The position numbers and the translations under genes are program-made. A stretch of DNA of 64,000 bases, from NCBI GenBank assembly GCA_963662465.1, contig OY759599.1, forward strand, positions 5,312,001 through 5,376,000, read 5' to 3'. This DNA is from Desulfatiglandales bacterium (GTDB lineage: Bacteria > Desulfobacterota > DSM-4660 > Desulfatiglandales > Desulfatiglandaceae). Positions 49,202 through 56,056 of the stretch are shown here, in pieces. Numbering within the stretch: position 1 is the stretch's first letter; each line of letters begins with the position of its first letter. The notes beneath the pieces were generated by a model. It worked only from the letters and a program-made list of their open reading frames with translations. It made no database searches and was not told the DNA's origin.

Positions 49202-49567
49202 ATGGACGGGCTAGGTTTGACATCGGATACTGACGGCAAAGACAAGCCGGCGTCAGAGGGATTGCCGCACAATCTTCGAACTTTTTTCTGGGATGTGGAT
49301 ACTGGCAGACTCTCCATTACCGGGTCGGCCCATTTTATCATCGGCCGTTTGATGGAACATGGCGATGAAGACGCGGTGAGATTCCTCTTTAAAAGTTACA
49401 GCCGTGATGAACTGGTCCAGGTTTTGAGAAAGAACAGGACCATTTCAAGGCGTTCACATGTTTTCTGGCGCCTTTTCCTTGGAATCGAAGAAAAATCATG
49501 TACACTGAAACGATATCCAACGCCTTATGGCAACTGCTCAAACGCCTCGATGGATTCCCGGAGTTAA
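49202..49567 (+). CDS. DUF6922-like putative antitoxin
   Basis: FFWDVD...FIIGRLMEHGD; upstream of a nucleotidyltransferase. Confidence 0.7.
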   Translation: MDGLGLTSDTDGKDKPASEGLPHNLRTFFWDVDTGRLSITGSAHFIIGRLMEHGDEDAVRFLFKSYSRDELVQVLRKNRTISRRSHVFWRLFLGIEEKSCTLKRYPTPYGNCSNASMDSRS

Positions 49568-50142
49568 AAATCGCGTATCTGGGGGGTGGAACAGCTCTGG
49601 CGCTTCAATTGGGACATCGCCGTTCTGATGATCTCGACTTTTTCCTTCCGGAAGACTTTAATATACAGACTCTGCTGCGAGAGTTCGGAAAACAGGACAT
49701 GACAATCACGGTTCTCGCTCAGACATCACGCCACACGGAACTTATCGTTCAGTCCTTAAAAGTCGATCTCATCGAAGAGCAGATCCCCCTGACGCGCCCG
49801 GCTCGATTGATCCATCGGGAAATCAGGAATCTGAATATGGCGGATGCCGTGGATATTGGGCGTATGAAACTTCTGACCATCGGGAGCAGGGGCGGCAGGA
49901 AGGATTTTGTCGACCTTTTCTGTCTTACGAGAGACATAATTTCTCTAAAGTCTCTGATCGCCTTGTCCATTGAAGAAAACCGGGGCATCAGGTACAGCAA
50001 ACTATTGTTCTTAAAGGGCCTCGTGGATTTTGAAACGGCCGACCTGGAACCGGATCCTGTCATGATCTGGGAAATAGACTGGGATACTGTGAAAAAAACC
50101 CTGATCGCTGAGGTAAAACAAATCGCCGGTGAGATTTGTTAA
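49498..50142 (+). CDS. AbiEii/AbiGii-type nucleotidyltransferase toxin
   Basis: YLGGGTALALQLGHRRSDDLDFF, K...SRGGRKDFVDL. Confidence 0.88.
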   Translation: MYTETISNALWQLLKRLDGFPELKIAYLGGGTALALQLGHRRSDDLDFFLPEDFNIQTLLREFGKQDMTITVLAQTSRHTELIVQSLKVDLIEEQIPLTRPARLIHREIRNLNMADAVDIGRMKLLTIGSRGGRKDFVDLFCLTRDIISLKSLIALSIEENRGIRYSKLLFLKGLVDFETADLEPDPVMIWEIDWDTVKKTLIAEVKQIAGEIC

Positions 50143-50213
50143 TCCACTTTGATCCAAAATATTGCATGAGCGCGTTTTCTGAGAAATGCAAAGGCGTCTT
50201 TGCGGGACATTTC

Positions 50214-50280
50214 AGATAGCCGGTTTGAAACAGCAGGGCCCCCACGCCCAAACGCTCTAGGTCGTACACACTGAAAAGGG
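50214..50280 (-). pseudogene. internal fragment of an AAA-ATPase-like protein
   Basis: FSVYDLERLGVGALLFQTGYL. Confidence 0.6.
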
Positions 50281-50298
50281 ATTGTAAACCTGTTATAT

Positions 50299-50757
50299 TT
50301 AGAAAGACAACATCCTATCCCCACCGATCACACCCTCCACCGTCTCCGGGCGGTTTTTTTGTTTGGTGGATCGTTCTTCTAAATATTGTTCCGCAGCATC
50401 TACCAACAACTGAGATCTTTTCATTCCGGCGCTTGTCCTGTATTCATCTACTCGAACCAACAGTTTTTCCGGGAAAATCACATTAAATCGTTTGGTCTTT
50501 GTATATTTCTTTTTGATAGATTCATTCACCGGAATCGGTATGATTTCAGATTCCGGATTTTCGCTCTGCAACTTTTCACGAGACGATTTTTGATGTACCA
50601 CTGTCTCCTGTTCAGATAAACATGCAGCCAAAGCATCAACCCCCATTTTATAGGCTTCATCCCAGGTTTTACCGAAGGTCTCACAGATTTCCACATCTGG
50701 AATTGAGACTAAGACATTATCATCTTCTTTTGTGAAGACAGCGTAAAAAAACTCCAT
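50299..50757 (-). CDS. hicB: HicB family antitoxin with RHH domain
   Basis: VSIPDVEICETFGKTWDEAYKMGVDAL, KRFNVIFPEKLL. Confidence 0.88.
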   Translation of the reverse strand: MEFFYAVFTKEDDNVLVSIPDVEICETFGKTWDEAYKMGVDALAACLSEQETVVHQKSSREKLQSENPESEIIPIPVNESIKKKYTKTKRFNVIFPEKLLVRVDEYRTSAGMKRSQLLVDAAEQYLEERSTKQKNRPETVEGVIGGDRMLSF

Positions 50758-50950
50758 TTTTGCCTCCTTTTTTATTCTTTAATTCCGGCTCGTTTCAAAA
50801 TATTGTTTACCGTTATATAATAAAAAACCAACAGGTTACACTCCCCATTACAGCATAAATAAATATTTTTCAATAGCTATCGAAAAAAGAAACCTCCTGT
50901 TAAGATGAAGTCGCTTTCCAAACAACTTTAACTTAAAAAGGAGGTTTCAA

Positions 50951-52237
50951 ATGGACGGTGTAGATACTACCAGGCTGGAGCGTTTTCGTCAATTGAGGAA
51001 GGAAATCCGTGGATCCAAGGAACATTTGATTGTAGGCATTGACGTGGCCAAGGATAATCATCATGCTTTTTTGGGGACAGCCAGGGGAAAAACACTTCTG
51101 AAGCGGTTGGTTTTTAACAACAATTTTCAGGGGTATGAGAAATTGTTCACATACGTTGATGCTACCAAAGTTAAGAATAACCTGAATAAAGTGGTCTTTG
51201 GTCTTGAACCGACCGCCAATTACCACAAACCTCTGGGCGAACATTTGATCAAATGCGGTTTTGATGTGGTGCTTGTGGCAGGCACGGCCGTGAAGAAAAA
51301 CCGTGAATTACTGGATGGGCGCTGGGATAAGCATGATACGAAGGATGCGGCCAATGTAGCGGATTTGGTTTCCCAAGGCAAATGTCTGTTTTACGAATAT
51401 CCGATCATGCCGATTCGTGAACTGCGAAATCTCCTGTCTTTTAAACGTCGGCTGAAAAAACAGGAACATGGGGCCAGAGTACGGATTCGGAATCATTTGC
51501 TTGCTCAGTATTTTCCTGAATTGGATCCTTATTTTTCCCGGATATCAGGCTGTAGCCTTAGCGTTGTGAAATGGTGTCTGGAACCTTCTTTGATTGCAGG
51601 ACTGGAGTACGAAGAGTTCCTTAGGTTGGTCGCACCCGGTAAACGTACGGTAAGACAACTGGAGTACGTGAAGCAGATTTGGGAAAAGGCATTTGAATCC
51701 ATCGGATGTAATGCCGGGGGAACCGTTCAGTTTGAGGCAAAAATGATGGTGGAAGAACTTGAACATGTTCGGGAATCAATTTTGGAAGTCGAAGAAAAGA
51801 TTGAAGAAATTTGCTTGGCTTTTTCTGAATACAAACATCTTCTCACCATACCTGGTTTTGGAAAAGATATTTCATCGAAGGTTTTGGGCGCTATCGGCAA
51901 CCCATTTCGGTTTGATAATGCAAAACAGGTGGTAAAACTGTCAGGGTGGGACCTGAATGCAAACCGTAGCGGAAAAAGTTCAGCGGGTGCTACGGCCGTA
52001 ATTTCTAAAAAAGGCAAAGCCGACCTGCGCTATGCGTTGTACCAGGCGGCCCTGGTTGCTTCATCTAGAAACCAACACTTTGTTGCATACTTTACGGAAA
52101 AACTCCGGGGAAGATCCCGCGAACGGGGCATCAAGACAAAAATGAGAGTGAAACTGGCGGCTAAACTTCTGGTAATCGCGTGGACCTTAATGAAAAAGCA
52201 GGAACCGTTCAATCCTGAATATTTGAAAGTAACATGA
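50951..52237 (+). CDS. IS110 family transposase (bridge recombinase)
   Basis: DEDD: GIDVAK, LEPTANYH, KHDTKDA; TIPGFG; RSGK serine motif; AGGAGG RBS; intact. Confidence 0.95.
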   Translation: MDGVDTTRLERFRQLRKEIRGSKEHLIVGIDVAKDNHHAFLGTARGKTLLKRLVFNNNFQGYEKLFTYVDATKVKNNLNKVVFGLEPTANYHKPLGEHLIKCGFDVVLVAGTAVKKNRELLDGRWDKHDTKDAANVADLVSQGKCLFYEYPIMPIRELRNLLSFKRRLKKQEHGARVRIRNHLLAQYFPELDPYFSRISGCSLSVVKWCLEPSLIAGLEYEEFLRLVAPGKRTVRQLEYVKQIWEKAFESIGCNAGGTVQFEAKMMVEELEHVRESILEVEEKIEEICLAFSEYKHLLTIPGFGKDISSKVLGAIGNPFRFDNAKQVVKLSGWDLNANRSGKSSAGATAVISKKGKADLRYALYQAALVASSRNQHFVAYFTEKLRGRSRERGIKTKMRVKLAAKLLVIAWTLMKKQEPFNPEYLKVT

Positions 52238-52380
52238 TAGAAGCCAAATCAGCCAAGAACCTCCGGTAAAGCCGGGGGTTTACTCAGAATAATGTCCACA
52301 CTATCAGGAAGTGGGGGCATGGAGACGGCAGTCAAACGACATCATTGCACAATGAGCAACATAAGACAGCCGGAGTTGAA

Positions 52381-53316
52381 ATGGATGAACTTGAACGATT
52401 TAAAAAAGAAATTAGCCTGATGGAATATGCACCGGCCCACGATTACACTGAGCTTGACCGTAGCCAGTCCAGCAAGACATGTGTAGTACTCAGGCGCGAG
52501 GCTGATGACGGCAAAATCGCAGTGAGCCGGGGCTATGATGGGCATTGGGTTTACTATGATTTCAGGCGTGGCAAAGGTGGTTCAATCCTTGACTTTGTAA
52601 TGCAGCATACCGGCTGCAATCTTGGCCAAACAAGAAAAGAGCTGAGAAAAGCGTTATGCAGCAACGTTAATTCTTTTTCCCATACTGCCCCTTTACCTAA
52701 TCCTCGATCAGCCACCAAGAACCGGCAAAAAGTGGCGTGGGAATATGCTGACACCACGCCCATTACAAGGCATCATGATTACTTGGAAAGCCGGGGGATT
52801 GGCCTTGAAGGCATTTTGGCTGGTCGGTTTGCCGGCGCCGTAAGAGTTGATCGGTATCGGAATGTTTGTTTTCCGTATTTTGATTTTAAGGGGATAGCGG
52901 GTATTGAAAGGCGGAATCATAATTTCAAATGTTACACGAAAGGAGGCAGTAAAGGGTTGTGGAGGAGTACGCTGATAGAGGGTGACTCAAAGGCCGTGAT
53001 TTGTGAAGCTCCAATTGACGCACTTTCCCATAGCAAACTGCGCCATGATAGCAACGACCGAACCAGGTATTTTGCAATCGGCGGCCAGATTAGCTATTTT
53101 CAATGGGAGTTGATTGATGGTCTGATAAAGAAATACAGTTCCGAAAAAATGGATATTTTTCTTGCATTTGACAACGACCCAGCCGGAAGAAAATATATCC
53201 GACAATTCCAGGAGCGTTATTCAGGGGTGTCATTTACGTTAGATTTGCCGCCCCAGGAAGGTCAGGACTGGAATGATGTTCTTCAGAGCAAACAACCAAT
53301 CGAGGGAAAATCTTGA
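52381..53316 (+). CDS. DUF3991/TOPRIM domain protein (primase-like)
   Basis: MDELERFKKEISL, GGSILDFV, YLESRGI; TOPRIM ICEAPIDALS and AFDNDPAG. Confidence 0.8.
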   Translation: MDELERFKKEISLMEYAPAHDYTELDRSQSSKTCVVLRREADDGKIAVSRGYDGHWVYYDFRRGKGGSILDFVMQHTGCNLGQTRKELRKALCSNVNSFSHTAPLPNPRSATKNRQKVAWEYADTTPITRHHDYLESRGIGLEGILAGRFAGAVRVDRYRNVCFPYFDFKGIAGIERRNHNFKCYTKGGSKGLWRSTLIEGDSKAVICEAPIDALSHSKLRHDSNDRTRYFAIGGQISYFQWELIDGLIKKYSSEKMDIFLAFDNDPAGRKYIRQFQERYSGVSFTLDLPPQEGQDWNDVLQSKQPIEGKS

Positions 53317-53372
53317 TTATTTTCTGAAGGGAAATGCAGTTGTTGTTTTACATATAAAAGCATGCAAGTTTA

Positions 53373-53532
53373 TCAGTGAGAGAGCTCGATGACTAACGTT
53401 GGGACCATTTTGGATCTCGTAGGGGACAATACTGGGCCTCTCACTGAACTTTACAACCTGGATAAGGGATGATAGGTGGCCGCCCAGCAGGGCGAGCATG
53501 CCGGATAAACGTAACGATAAGGTGTAGAGTTC
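53373..53532 (+). ncRNA. predicted bridge/seek RNA of the IS110 element
   Basis: Two consecutive stem-loops with large internal loops; loop 1 holds TGACTAACGT and AGGGGAC matching the target flanks; loop 2 holds GGATG and TAAC matching the circle junction. Confidence 0.72.
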
Positions 53533-53921
53533 ATAAAAGGTGAGAAACTCACTGAAAACTGCAAAAAGTCCGCAACGGACTTAATGCTGAATTGTGCAAA
53601 AAATTTTGGACATAGCGTAACTACCTGTTATTACAGGGTTTGCAGTTTTTTGAAGTTTTTTCTTGACAGGAGCATTATAGGATGTCCCCTTTGGGATGTC
53701 GGCAGCTTGCCTGGGGATTGGTATTGTTTGTCCGTTTTTTCCCCAAATTTCGTGACGGCCTTCTCGGAGGAAGTTCCACCCGGATGCGCTCAAGAGTTTG
53801 AGTAGTTCCCGCTTTGTCATTTCCGTCCCCCCGCAGTTGAAGTTGGAAGTATTGTAGTGTGTAATTGGGTATCAATCAAACGAAAAATACACAATTACAC
53901 ATTTTGCAAGACAATTTCCCA

Positions 53922-54073
53922 GTTTTGCCGAAGCGGCGGGGATGGGCCATGAAGTAGTAGCGGCCCTCCTCCAGCATTCGGAGAATCCAGGGGGTCTTGT
54001 CCACATACAAAAACCCCTCACGGCGAATGATCTCAAAGGATTACAGGTCAATGGGCAGTTTGAGAGGGGGCAT
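53922..54073 (-). pseudogene. N-terminal fragment of an AAA-ATPase-like protein, copy 2
   Basis: Near-identical to 48679-48830. Confidence 0.8.
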
Positions 54074-54113
54074 TTGGCTGAATCTCCTTAAAAATACTTC
54101 CCGGATACCCCAC

Positions 54114-56056
54114 GAGGGGTTTGCGCTGTGCTTAAGTCTCTGGTATCCTGGAGGGATTTGGCAGTGTCAAAAAAACATTACCCCAAAAAAAAGATGGGTG
54201 GGCATCCTGAAATCAAGCACTTAGCTAGATCGAGTCGGAATTTTCCATTTTTTCACCCCAAGCGAAAGAACTTGTCGGAATACCTTGATTTTAATACAAA
54301 ATATTGTACAATGCCTTCATCAGATAACAGGATAGAGTGTTTCTTTAAATATTTGATGGAGGCCGAAACTTGGCAGCAGTGAGTCCGTTTCTTTTTTCGT
54401 GGAATGATGTCGAAGCACGCTCGGATTTGGACCGTTTCTATCTGGTGCGCGATAATCTGCCTGATGAGAATATTGTAGCGGCACTTGAAAAGCGTCGCGG
54501 CAATGGGAGAGATGATTTTCCGATACGCGCAATGTGGAACGCGCTTATTGCGGGAGTCGTGTTCCAGCATGCATCCATTGAATCTTTGATTCGCGAATTG
54601 TCCAGGAATCCGGCGTTATTAGAGGCATGCGGATTTGATATTCTGCCGAGGCAAAAAAAACCGGTAGCTGAACTGAGACGCAATGAGGAAACGGGCCGAA
54701 TGGAAATCATACGGTCTGAGAGCGGAAATGCATATTTTTTGGTTCCAGGTAGTTGGAATTTCTCAAGATTTTTAAGGAGCGTCATAGAACTGGAAGAATA
54801 TGGTAATATGGTCAGCGGCATGGTGCGTGGGCTTCGAGAATCCTTAATGACAGAACTCCCTGATTTTGGTTGTCATTTAGGGTATGACGGCAAGGCTATC
54901 AACAGTTATAGTACGGGACAAGAAAGCCGGAAAACCGGTGAAACCTCCGATACGGATGCAGATTGGGGCAAGCATGAAACGAAAGGGACAGACAGTAAAA
55001 CCGGAAAGCAGTGGACAAAAGTAAAAAGCTGGTTTGGATATGGCCTTCATTTGATCGCTGATACCCTATATGAAATTCCGGTGGCAGTTCATGTAACACC
55101 TGCCTCGCATTCGGAACACAAGGAACTGCGAAGCATGATCAAAGAAATTTTTGAGGAAACACCGCAGCTTGGCGAGCGCTGTGATGATTTTGTGGCGGAC
55201 CGTGGTTTGGATTCCGGCAAAACTAAGGCTCAGCTGTTGGATGAATATGGGATTCGGCCCGGCATTGATACCCGTGAACTGTGGAGAGATGAAAAGAATG
55301 AGCCGGGATACGATCCTGCAAAACCGATCACACGACCTCTTTATCCTGACCGGGCAGATACCATTGTGTATACTGAGAAAGGGACAGTCCATTGTATTTG
55401 TCCGGCTACTGGAGAACAGCGGGACATGGCTTTTTGTGGCTTTGAAAAAAATCGCAATACCCTGAAATATCGTTGTCCCGCAGCTGCAAACGGCTTTTCC
55501 TGTGAAGGATGTGGAGAGTGTTCATCTGCGGGGCAAGTTAATCCCGGAGATTATGGGCGAATTGTCAGAATAAATATCACTGAGGAAGATCGGCGAATCT
55601 TCACACCCATTCCCTATGGTACGCAGGGTTGGGACCGAGCGTATAATCGGCGTTCTTCTTTGGAGAGAATCAACAGTCGGATCGATAATGATTTTGGTTT
55701 TGAGAAACATTACATACGCGGCCAAGCCAAAATGCAAACAAGAGTTTGCTTGGCCACCGCCGTAATGATGGCAATGGCCCTTGGTCATGTAAGGGCTGGC
55801 CGTATTGAGCAAATGCGCTCCCTTGTACGGCCAATAGCCAGAGCCGCCTAATCCAATTTATTTAAAATAGTTATAAATAAATGATTTAATTTAAATTTAA
55901 AGGGATTAGCATGTCCAATTATCGGGTTTTTGGGGTATGTCTTTGGAAACCATAATATTCTGCTGCCATGTCGCCCTCTCAGACCTCGCGCCCGCGTTTT
56001 TTTGGGGCCCAGAACACCCCCGGTACGGCACAAAAACGGTACAGCGCAAACCTCTC
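54114..56056 (+). mobile_element. IS1182/IS5-like element (1943 bp)
   Basis: 16-bp IR GAG(G/A)GGTTTGCGCTGT; 5-bp TSD CCCAC (54109-13, 56057-61). Confidence 0.85.
54370..55851 (+). CDS. DDE transposase (IS1182/IS5-like)
   Basis: GRDDFPIRAMW N-domain, YDGK, FGYGLH, ADRGLD, YNRRSSLERINS. Confidence 0.88.
   Translation: MAAVSPFLFSWNDVEARSDLDRFYLVRDNLPDENIVAALEKRRGNGRDDFPIRAMWNALIAGVVFQHASIESLIRELSRNPALLEACGFDILPRQKKPVAELRRNEETGRMEIIRSESGNAYFLVPGSWNFSRFLRSVIELEEYGNMVSGMVRGLRESLMTELPDFGCHLGYDGKAINSYSTGQESRKTGETSDTDADWGKHETKGTDSKTGKQWTKVKSWFGYGLHLIADTLYEIPVAVHVTPASHSEHKELRSMIKEIFEETPQLGERCDDFVADRGLDSGKTKAQLLDEYGIRPGIDTRELWRDEKNEPGYDPAKPITRPLYPDRADTIVYTEKGTVHCICPATGEQRDMAFCGFEKNRNTLKYRCPAAANGFSCEGCGECSSAGQVNPGDYGRIVRINITEEDRRIFTPIPYGTQGWDRAYNRRSSLERINSRIDNDFGFEKHYIRGQAKMQTRVCLATAVMMAMALGHVRAGRIEQMRSLVRPIARAA

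Follow-up and report, generated by a model that had tools for sequence, protein, structure and literature searches.

Bridge recombinases are currently under development as programmable tools for genome writing. Within the IS110 family, IS621 and its bridge RNA were described by Durrant et al. (2024) and reportedly also by Hiraizumi et al. in 2024, and elements of the IS1111 subgroup with a 3′ bridge RNA, or seekRNA, are said to have been reported by Siddiquee et al. in the same year. The copying of natural IS110 elements is debated, i.e., cut-out versus copy-out and double-stranded versus single-stranded circles. The IS1111 subgroup, namely IS1111, IS4321/IS5075 and the attC-targeting group, has also been presented with its 3′ bridge RNA or seekRNA by Durrant et al. 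(2024; PMC11208160; for this and the other papers cited below, statements relate to the parts of their text that were available). More recently, expanded IS110 loci bearing cargo were reported in a preprint, with 2,999 elements above 2 kb, where the cargo is mostly plasmid-derived and acquired downstream of the transposase module, where sizes form a continuum and the adaptive cargo is variable (e.g., resistance or metal detoxification), with repeated local insertion and duplication, and where one-sided donor matches lie at internal cargo boundaries (Hu, Xie, Yang, Rubin, bioRxiv 10.64898/2026.08.14.744561). Here, an element of this family is considered in a window, i.e., the whole stretch of DNA analysed, of 64,000 nucleotides from Desulfatiglandales bacterium (GCA_963662465.1, contig OY759599.1, positions 5,312,001-5,376,000 of the forward strand), where a mobile unit of 2872 bp at window positions 50814-53685 interrupts hicA at a GT dinucleotide and carries a recombinase gene, a primase-like gene and a structured right end. 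Taken as a whole, and with a confidence a little short of an even chance, the locus is read as an active element of the IS1111 subgroup that took up a DnaG-type primase between its recombinase and its 3′ bridge RNA, that moves as one and that is served by this primase.

The core dinucleotide GT is present twice at the borders of the unit, namely as a left copy at 50812-50813 and as a right copy at 53684-53685. Excising 50814-53685 in silico, i.e., joining 50813 to 53686, gives an in-frame HicA of 58 residues with a stop codon 12 nt before hicB, an intact gene on the minus strand (50299-50757). As it stands, the broken hicA open reading frame (ORF), which starts at 53820 on the minus strand, covers only positions 2-48 out of 58 of the Pfam HicA_toxin profile. 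The 3′ piece of the split gene (50772-50813, minus strand), consisting of the last 13 codons and the stop, ends in the left GT, and the 5′ piece (53686-53820, minus strand) has its start codon at 53820, the right flank opening with CCCC. The empty site itself was found in X1, a public and organism-labelled run, the kind of which is not on record and the contigs of which reach up to 201 kb. There, one contig of 1949 bases spans 50600-50811 and 53684-53900 with nothing between, so that exactly 2872 bases are skipped, two letters fit either side and there are zero other differences. With the occupied form in the assembled genome and the empty form in X1, it follows that both alleles exist. A single GT stands at each junction and one GT in the empty allele, with no target duplication; insertion thus occurred at a core dinucleotide common to donor and target and without duplication, which is the mode of insertion by which the IS110 family is recognised. 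The first-pass annotation of this sequence had proposed that hicA was cut at GT and would be restored as a product of 58 residues, and both the in-silico joining and the X1 contig bear this out. It had also advised looking for an empty hicA site in relatives; within the genus this led nowhere, the hicB-hicA flank itself being held by none of the 10 other genomes, but the exact empty site in run X1 supplies what was sought.

The same annotation had placed an IS110 recombinase, a DUF3991/TOPRIM gene and a structured non-coding end in the insert, an assignment with which the domain matches and the covariation agree down to the coordinates, and had supposed that recombinase, TOPRIM gene and bridge RNA travel together as one 2.87-kb unit. 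The latter is upheld by the empty site of X1, by full copies at unrelated sites and by a truncated copy, L002. The genome of origin (8.16 Mb) holds one full copy, L002 (96%), a 379-bp recombinase fragment and two remnants, i.e., a right end of 206 bp (L004) and a left end of 39 bp (L005). L002 is truncated at its 5′ side with the primase gene still joined to the same right end, and all three right ends of this genome stop at the identical base, followed by CCCC. Beyond this genome, a scan with the primase alignment, using one genome per species, went from 602 pattern stretches to 137 confirmed relatives and 78 loci kept, eight of which have the recombinase adjoining the primase gene (L006, L007, L008, L009, L010, L013, L047, and L014); L013 ends at the contig end, L047 is decayed and L014 has an internal deletion. 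The window element is aligned from first to last base by L006, L008 and L047, and over nearly all of its length by L009 and by L010, which runs to the end of its contig. Identical termini at differing flanks were seen in L006, L008, L009, L010, L014, L047, L114/L123 and L134 as well as in L002, L004 and L005, with both flanks visible for the full-length L006, L008, L114/L123 and L134; in the aligned copies of the species scan, the element always starts with TATATA(A/T)T after GT and ends with TATAGGAT-GT, and the flanks differ. A metagenome scan with the 17-base right terminus returned at least 118 stretches. Among the matches listed, about eight loci have a whole or partial primase-bearing copy (L091, L104/L105, L114, L123, L134, the deletion forms L117/L119, and L154), about eight have primase-less relatives, and the remainder are mostly the last 30-70 bases beside ordinary genes or chance matches without TTGACA. 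Such a recurrence of the same two termini at different flanks, in genomes and metagenomes, is far beyond chance. That the locus would be an ordinary insertion sequence brought beside an unrelated gene by chance or by assembly error, and hence no unit at all, has the sole point in its favour that most relatives have no primase gene; it is already contradicted by the bridge RNA and right terminus lying beyond the primase gene, by an empty allele without all 2872 bp and by several independent insertions with the same content, and is regarded as extremely improbable.

Several other features of the copies were noted. L002 (L002:1207-1550) is joined to the beginning of an IS66 TnpC-like gene and still has a short internal recombinase piece, and a contig of run X1 has a joint from 51460 to 52189 that matches L002. 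L004 (G000:C1:7011085-7011290) and L005 (7032567-7032606) lie 21 kb apart on the same strand, the right end before the left end, which is the reverse of the order expected from a split element. In L009 (L009:3386-4684), the recombinase and primase genes are separated by a nested IS4-like element with a DDE transposase. Solo right termini, composed of the last 30-206 bases with TTGACA and GT and followed by CCC or CCCC, occur beside chromosomal genes and far from any recombinase (e.g., L004:1501-1706, L084, L093, L097, L136, L155, and L160) and may be partial-excision scars or decayed copies. Deletion derivatives of up to about 1.1 kb, i.e., L014:4664-5770 (which shares its contig with L154 and resembles L230), L117 and L119, have lost the middle of the unit: an early stretch of the recombinase gene runs straight into a late stretch of the primase gene, and the bridge RNA and both termini are retained. 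These are possible non-autonomous forms.

The recombinase (50951-52237, plus strand; 428 aa) matches the Pfam domains PF01548 (5.5e-23, residues 28-189) and PF02371 (7.7e-17, residues 295-380), exceeds the cut-off of 140 bits of NCBIfam NF033542, “IS110 family RNA-guided transposase,” with 171.6 bits, and matches chain 8wt6_A of IS621 by phmmer with an E-value of 2.5e-16. Its residues D31, E86, D129, D132 and S340 align with what we take, from the numbering of IS621, to be the catalytic positions in 8wt6_A, i.e., a recombinase of the DEDD/Ser type. The element is a member of the IS1111 subgroup of the IS110 family, with a short left end of 137 bp (50814-50950, plus strand), which opens with TATATAAT, and a long non-coding right end of 369 bp (53317-53685, plus strand), which holds the RNA and terminates with TATAGGAT and then GT. 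The termini are kept across copies, the left ends are homologous in primase-less relatives and the layout is the same there. By eye, the sub-terminal inverted repeat amounts to a pair of 6 bp only, TATAAT (50816-50821) and ATTATA (53674-53679). The two halves of a junction promoter are distributed over the two ends, i.e., the -35 half TTGACA in the right end (53663-53668, plus strand) and the -10 half in the left end (TATATAAT, 50814-50821); joined ends would space TTGACA 17 nt from TATATA (50814-50819) and 19 nt from TATAAT. The TTGACA motif is intact in seven out of nine copies of one right-end alignment, the other two differing at a single position, and in 20 of the 21 end-reaching rows of a second one, L218 having one change. 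Within the left end, a leader hairpin (50889-50949) pairs the ribosome-binding site of the recombinase gene (DNA fold z -5.6; as stable in none of 200 shuffles) and is likely to brake translation from read-through transcripts.

The right end holds a two-loop bridge RNA, supported by the covariation among its versions. The alignment included 41 out of 43 distinct versions, leaving out L047 because of decay and L163 because of an insertion in the RNA, and its consensus consists of two tandem stem-loops with 41 pairs, 20 of which have changes on both sides. Pairing on this structure reaches 97.0% of cells versus 89.8% in shuffles, none of 500 shuffles attains any of five measures, and sliding the partners by 1-3 columns as a control lowers pairing to 30-49%. 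In Rfam, scanned over 50000-54500 with E-values up to 1, zero families matched. The first stem-loop (53375-53445, plus strand) is predicted to bind the target, from the consensus fold, the pair counts and the comparison of guides with flanks. The left target guide (53389-53399, plus strand) occupies the 5′ side of this loop and reads in the sense of the left flank and core; it varies among copies, apart from the CGT at its end, which is constant. The right target guide (53419-53427, plus strand) occupies the 3′ side, its GGGGAC complementing the core and CCCC. Counted by hand and by eye, with no permutation control, the left guide and the left flank of the same element coincide at a mean of about 5.6 out of 8 variable positions over 26 elements, with the best agreement at 10 out of 11 in L010 and at nine consecutive positions in L213 and L218. 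The right guide pairs with the core and 3-5 flank bases in every element read, guide GCGAC and flank GTCGC change in concert in L218, and for the window copy the right guide fully matches its own target over seven bases. The second stem-loop (53446-53532, plus strand), supported by the consensus fold and covariation of the left donor guide, would bind the donor through a candidate left donor guide GGGATG (53466-53471, plus strand), matching the right terminus, and a candidate right donor guide GTAAC (RTAAC; 53511-53515, plus strand), complementing GT and the TAT of the left end. The donor guides are short and their support is one covarying position only, i.e., by eye, the left donor guide becomes GGGATT in six out of seven relatives with a GGATT-GT terminus. 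Contigs of two RNA libraries (X11 and X16) cover relatives of the element including the bridge-RNA region, although DNA may be present in these libraries and depth cannot rank the parts.

Around the guides, the metagenomic copy L163 (L163:420-597) has an insertion of about 110 bases inside the target-binding loop, directly after the right target guide. Left targets are near-identical across genomes, ending in TTATGGAC-GT or GAACCAAC-GT followed by CCCC, which suggests that a conserved, repeated host sequence may be the natural target; in L097 and L109, such a left target site lies directly upstream of a solo right terminus.

The distribution of the primase gene was followed through a recombinase search of 209 genomes of the same order, with matches in 41 and 22 loci having a full-length gene. 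At 90-100% recombinase identity, the primase gene is present in all five loci (including L205, with the primase beyond the nested insertion sequence seen in L009), and at 60-76% it is present in none of 17. The presence of the TOPRIM gene in every same-ended copy, raised as a point to check in the first-pass annotation, thus holds for the five copies at 90% identity or more as well as for the divergent L013, and fails for the 17 more distant ones. In the latter, right-end homology follows the recombinase stop immediately, the bridge RNA beginning no more than about 30 nt beyond it, and the element is 1714-1792 bp long where both ends were found; as such, the window lineage corresponds to an element of this kind enlarged by about 1.1 kb (from 52238 to about 53352). 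A FastTree nucleotide phylogeny of 30 recombinase genes, with a family member 27% identical as the root, places all eight primase-bearing copies in one clade with a support of 1.0, the sister of which is the primase-less L207. L013, with 38 recombinase codons on its contig, was left out of this tree; it nonetheless has the order recombinase, primase, bridge RNA and terminus followed by CCCC, with a primase 54% identical, and this divergence indicates that the association with the primase predates the 90% clade or extends beyond it.

The borders of the primase segment were searched for traces of its acquisition. Repeats were absent there in a repeat search, and a k-mer scan for donor-like half-sites gave only an A/T-rich stretch of 6-8 bases at 53352-53359, in both senses, which was not counted since homologous sequence is also present in primase-less relatives. 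Downstream of the primase gene, a stretch reminiscent of the recombinase 3′ end (53309-53336 versus 52211-52236) had a local alignment score of 22, which 64 out of 500 shuffles reached; its reading as a relic was rejected as not significant. Close copies without the gene and insertion scars of its own had been named beforehand as signs that it did not belong to the element; all five close copies carry it and no scar specific to it was found at its borders.

The second gene lies downstream of a spacer of variable length (52238-52380, plus strand), as seen from the alignment of copies and the fold; a 46-nt piece of this spacer bearing a hairpin is in only three out of six close copies, and in L013 the whole spacer measures about 30 nt. 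The reading frame is open from 52345, and the ATG at 52381 is the likely start given homologues of 305-317 aa and their alignment, for a protein of 311 aa (52381-53316, plus strand). Pfam assigns DUF3991 and Toprim_2 (1.6e-12), and NCBIfam returned no match for it. A family profile built on 35 members and searched against the PDB matches the primase fragment of T7 gp4 (1nui, residues 130-289, E 2.7e-8). In the AlphaFold model (mean pLDDT 85.6), the top match by Foldseek is Aquifex DnaG (2au3, with zinc-binding and RNA-polymerase domains, E 7e-10), followed by catalytic cores of DnaG, the T7 and T4 primases, and Twinkle, and the N-terminal 97 residues resemble the zinc-binding domain (ZBD) of DnaG (1d0q; probability 0.99, TM 0.59 to target). 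The acidic residues E209, D264-x-D266, D296 and D299 are intact in all seven IS110-borne proteins. On the strength of profiles and model, the cargo is a predicted primase of the DnaG/T7-gp4 type, the TOPRIM site of which is intact and the N-terminal domain of which is ZBD-like but zinc-less; template-directed primer synthesis is predicted for it. Against the window copy, six comparisons, with L091 and L114 left out, give a dN/dS of 0.20-0.30 for the primase, and the recombinase lies at 0.08-0.15; the primase gene is under purifying selection.

TOPRIM domains are also found in nucleases. A protein acting as nuclease or nucleic-acid binder, e.g., in the processing of the bridge RNA, in DNA nicking or as a non-catalytic scaffold, could account for the loss of the N-terminal zinc ligands, and with 1.1 kb now separating the bridge RNA from the recombinase gene, the 5′ end of the RNA may have to be generated differently. 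Such a role apart from priming is nevertheless improbable, as the whole fold and the profile match primases, i.e., ZBD plus RNA-polymerase domain, rather than TOPRIM nucleases, the acidic metal-binding residues are intact, and neither the primase nor the recombinase matched anything in PADLOC.

Among flanking ORFs scanned for domains (97 of 139 listed), those adjoining relatives of the primase at 30-40% identity encode relaxases, ParA, RepA/TrfA/Rep3, ArdC, SSB, RadC and tyrosine integrases, i.e., genes of plasmids or of integrative and conjugative elements, and the longer relatives, three out of three, are fusions with a relaxase domain (PF03432 or PF01076). Closer relatives are found with other transposons. 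In L012 (63%; L012:1129-4389), the primase gene follows IstA/IstB, the ends of the element being not found; in L011 (64%; L011:902-5129), an rve transposase and an AAA_22 ATPase (TniA/TniB-like) precede the primase, all within inverted repeats of 25 nt; in L017 (35%; L017:539-4163), an IS21 element has inverted ends of 60 nt with multiple repeats around istA, istB and a primase-like gene. In the protein tree, the IS110-borne primases together with L011, L012 and L013 constitute one clade with a support of 0.994, the sister of which is the relaxase-linked L029, adjoining a MobA-helicase, and L016 and L017 make up another transposon-borne group apart from it. The primase may accordingly be conceived as passive or selfish cargo from a plasmid or conjugative element, benefiting itself, a co-resident plasmid or the host, with no part in transposition. 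Besides the plasmid-type neighbours of the family and the position of L029, this agrees with the mostly plasmid-derived DNA of the expanded loci (Hu et al.) and with the intact appearance of the 17 primase-less relatives. It accounts less readily for a single gene at a constant internal position kept down to 54% protein identity (L013), for intact catalytic residues with a dN/dS of 0.2-0.3, for the occurrence of the same clade in other transposon families, which is unusual for random cargo, and for a host that already holds DnaG and draws no evident benefit. Passive carriage is doubtful, though the foremost rival.

Under the preferred reading, i.e., a primase serving the element, events can be pictured from what applies to the family. 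The recombinase with the bridge RNA would join the right end to the left end, thereby creating a promoter composed of TTGACA, 17 nt and TATATA, from which transcription would pass the leader hairpin and cover both genes, recombinase and then primase, before reaching the bridge RNA. Insertion of the joined donor would take place at sites of the form ...AC-GT-CCCC, as in hicA with a full match of the right guide and a weak match of the left guide. The primase may lay primers on the single-stranded circle or on the single-strand insertion product, from which a host polymerase would make the second strand. Single-strand excision and top-strand insertion are reported for IS110 elements in two preprints (Xie et al.; Sun et al.), with copy-out and top-strand insertion for CazIS110 (Sun et al.). 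The priming role is favoured because single-strand IS110 intermediates are thus reported and because relatives of the protein are tied to relaxases, which also make circular single strands; that the primase primes the second strand of a single-stranded IS110 intermediate is accordingly proposed as a tentative role, plausible though short of probable. The relaxase-fused relatives of plasmids are expected to prime transferred single strands likewise. A stronger version, where the primase would be a dedicated transposition factor solving the second-strand problem of single-stranded DNA, its clade having been recruited also by IS21-type and TniA/TniB-type transposons, is rather unlikely. A different use of the circle, suggested by the first-pass annotation beside an aid to transposition, would be its maintenance, where the primase would allow replication of the excised circle or its persistence as a short-lived episome, with more time for re-insertion or more copies. 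Such primases do belong to replication or establishment modules of plasmids, and once the ends are joined, the primase gene would come under the junction promoter; yet no initiator protein, iterons or origin-like repeats are present within the 2872 bp, a primase alone does not make a replicon and, which is weak evidence, no circle junction was seen among the contigs of four runs, so that this explanation has a low probability.

A number of observations weigh against an element-serving primase in an active IS1111-type element. Since the 17 closest primase-less relatives are intact, the primase gene is dispensable for the family. In the protein, the stretch that presumably corresponds to the Cys-x-x-Cys zinc knuckle has none of its cysteines, and the chain ends about 15 residues past TOPRIM, with neither a helicase-binding C-terminal domain as in DnaG nor a fused helicase as in T7 gp4; with the zinc ligands not seen and the helicase-binding domain missing, primer synthesis is only predicted. 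In the spacer before the primase gene, alignment and fold gave no conserved priming signal. The primase clade is present in an IS21-gene neighbourhood and in a TniA/TniB-like transposon as well, and IS21/TniAB chemistry is not known to produce single-stranded circles; the same clade in DDE transposons would rather indicate a more general role or hitch-hiking. A joint between right end and left end, as in a circle, was found in none of four runs, which counts weakly since all were available as contigs and contigs drop rare forms. Finally, the left guide of the window copy agrees with the actual left flank at only four out of eight variable positions, by eye. Together with the full right match, such a weak left match fits the “half-match” insertions of Xie et al. 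(preprint).

As for its significance, an intact primase kept through long divergence constitutes comparative evidence that priming can limit the life cycle of such elements, and the unit hints that an element of this type can provide assistance of its own when a single-stranded intermediate is copied. At 311 aa, the primase is a small and concrete candidate helper protein, and a gene between recombinase and 3′ bridge RNA is tolerated with no loss of mobility, which is useful for design. The sharing of one primase clade by three transposon types with no relation to each other points to a connection between transposition and priming that is general and so far undescribed. The stronger version, with the primase as a dedicated transposition factor, would if true amount to an unrecognised class of transposon-encoded primases and to a natural accessory factor that could raise the insertion efficiency of bridge recombinases. 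Regarding the surroundings of the locus, the neighbourhood is an accessory patch with an AbiEii-type toxin gene (49498-50142) immediately to the left of hicB and, 0.5 kb to the right of hicA, a gene for a DDE_Tnp_1 transposase (54370-55851).

Compared with known systems, the element shares with IS621 the recombinase family and the guide logic, i.e., left and right target guides (LTG and RTG) and left and right donor guides (LDG and RDG). It differs in that IS621 belongs to the IS110 subgroup, has its RNA in the left end and a CT core, and is 1.28 kb long with no further gene. The likeness is closer with the IS1111 subgroup, as regards (i) the DEDD/Ser recombinase, the short left end and the long right end holding the guide RNA, (ii) the loops, the 5′ sides of which match the bottom strand and the 3′ sides the top strand of target and donor, and (iii) the core dinucleotide common to donor and target, the absence of target duplication, and a -35 half in the right end with a -10 half in the left end. 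Unlike in this subgroup, a primase segment of 1.1 kb separates the recombinase stop from the RNA, and the visible sub-terminal inverted repeat is only 6 bp, against the 7-17 bp quoted for IS1111 elements.

For the primase, relaxase-primase fusions and leading-region primases are found on mobilisable and conjugative plasmids, e.g., MobA/RepB′ of RSF1010, the RepB′ primase having a different fold. The relatives of the window protein are similarly fused to or adjoining relaxases, and the job expected of plasmid relaxase-primases is comparable, namely complementary-strand priming on a circular single strand issued from a strand-transfer enzyme. In the window, by contrast, the partner is an RNA-guided recombinase and the protein is stand-alone, with 311 aa. 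The IS21-family and TnsB/TniA-TniB-type transposons of L017, L012 and L011 resemble the window element in having a DUF3991-TOPRIM gene, inside the inverted repeats in L017 and L011, but use a DDE transposase with an ATPase helper and no RNA-guided recombinase. In the insertion-sequence excision enhancer, IEE (PrimPol plus helicase), a primase-type enzyme again acts on circular copy-out insertion sequences, the families listed including IS110/IS1111 (bioRxiv 10.1101/2023.06.07.543989). Unlike the window primase, IEE comprises a PrimPol of archaeo-eukaryotic type and a helicase, is encoded outside the insertion sequence and acts in trans, and its effect is to promote excision or abortive transposition.

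In the literature searched, no published primase inside an IS110/IS1111 element was found, nor, among DUF3991 papers judged by title and start of abstract, any published IS21 or TniA/TniB-type transposon with DUF3991-TOPRIM. The words toprim, primase, DUF3991 and IS1111 are likewise absent from the main text of Hu et al., the supplements lying outside this search. The view of the first-pass annotation that IS110 elements usually encode only the recombinase and its non-coding RNA has in part been overtaken by that preprint; cargo-bearing IS110 elements are thus already reported, and it is the primase-bearing lineage that was not found in print. As in the loci of Hu et al., the element exceeds 2 kb (2872 bp, with two genes only), has downstream coding DNA of plasmid-like origin, contains no second transposase, has guides matching its flanks and is mobile as a whole. 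Unlike these loci, it has no one-sided donor matches at the primase borders, and its lineage carries one replication gene, in a fixed internal position and kept clade-wide.

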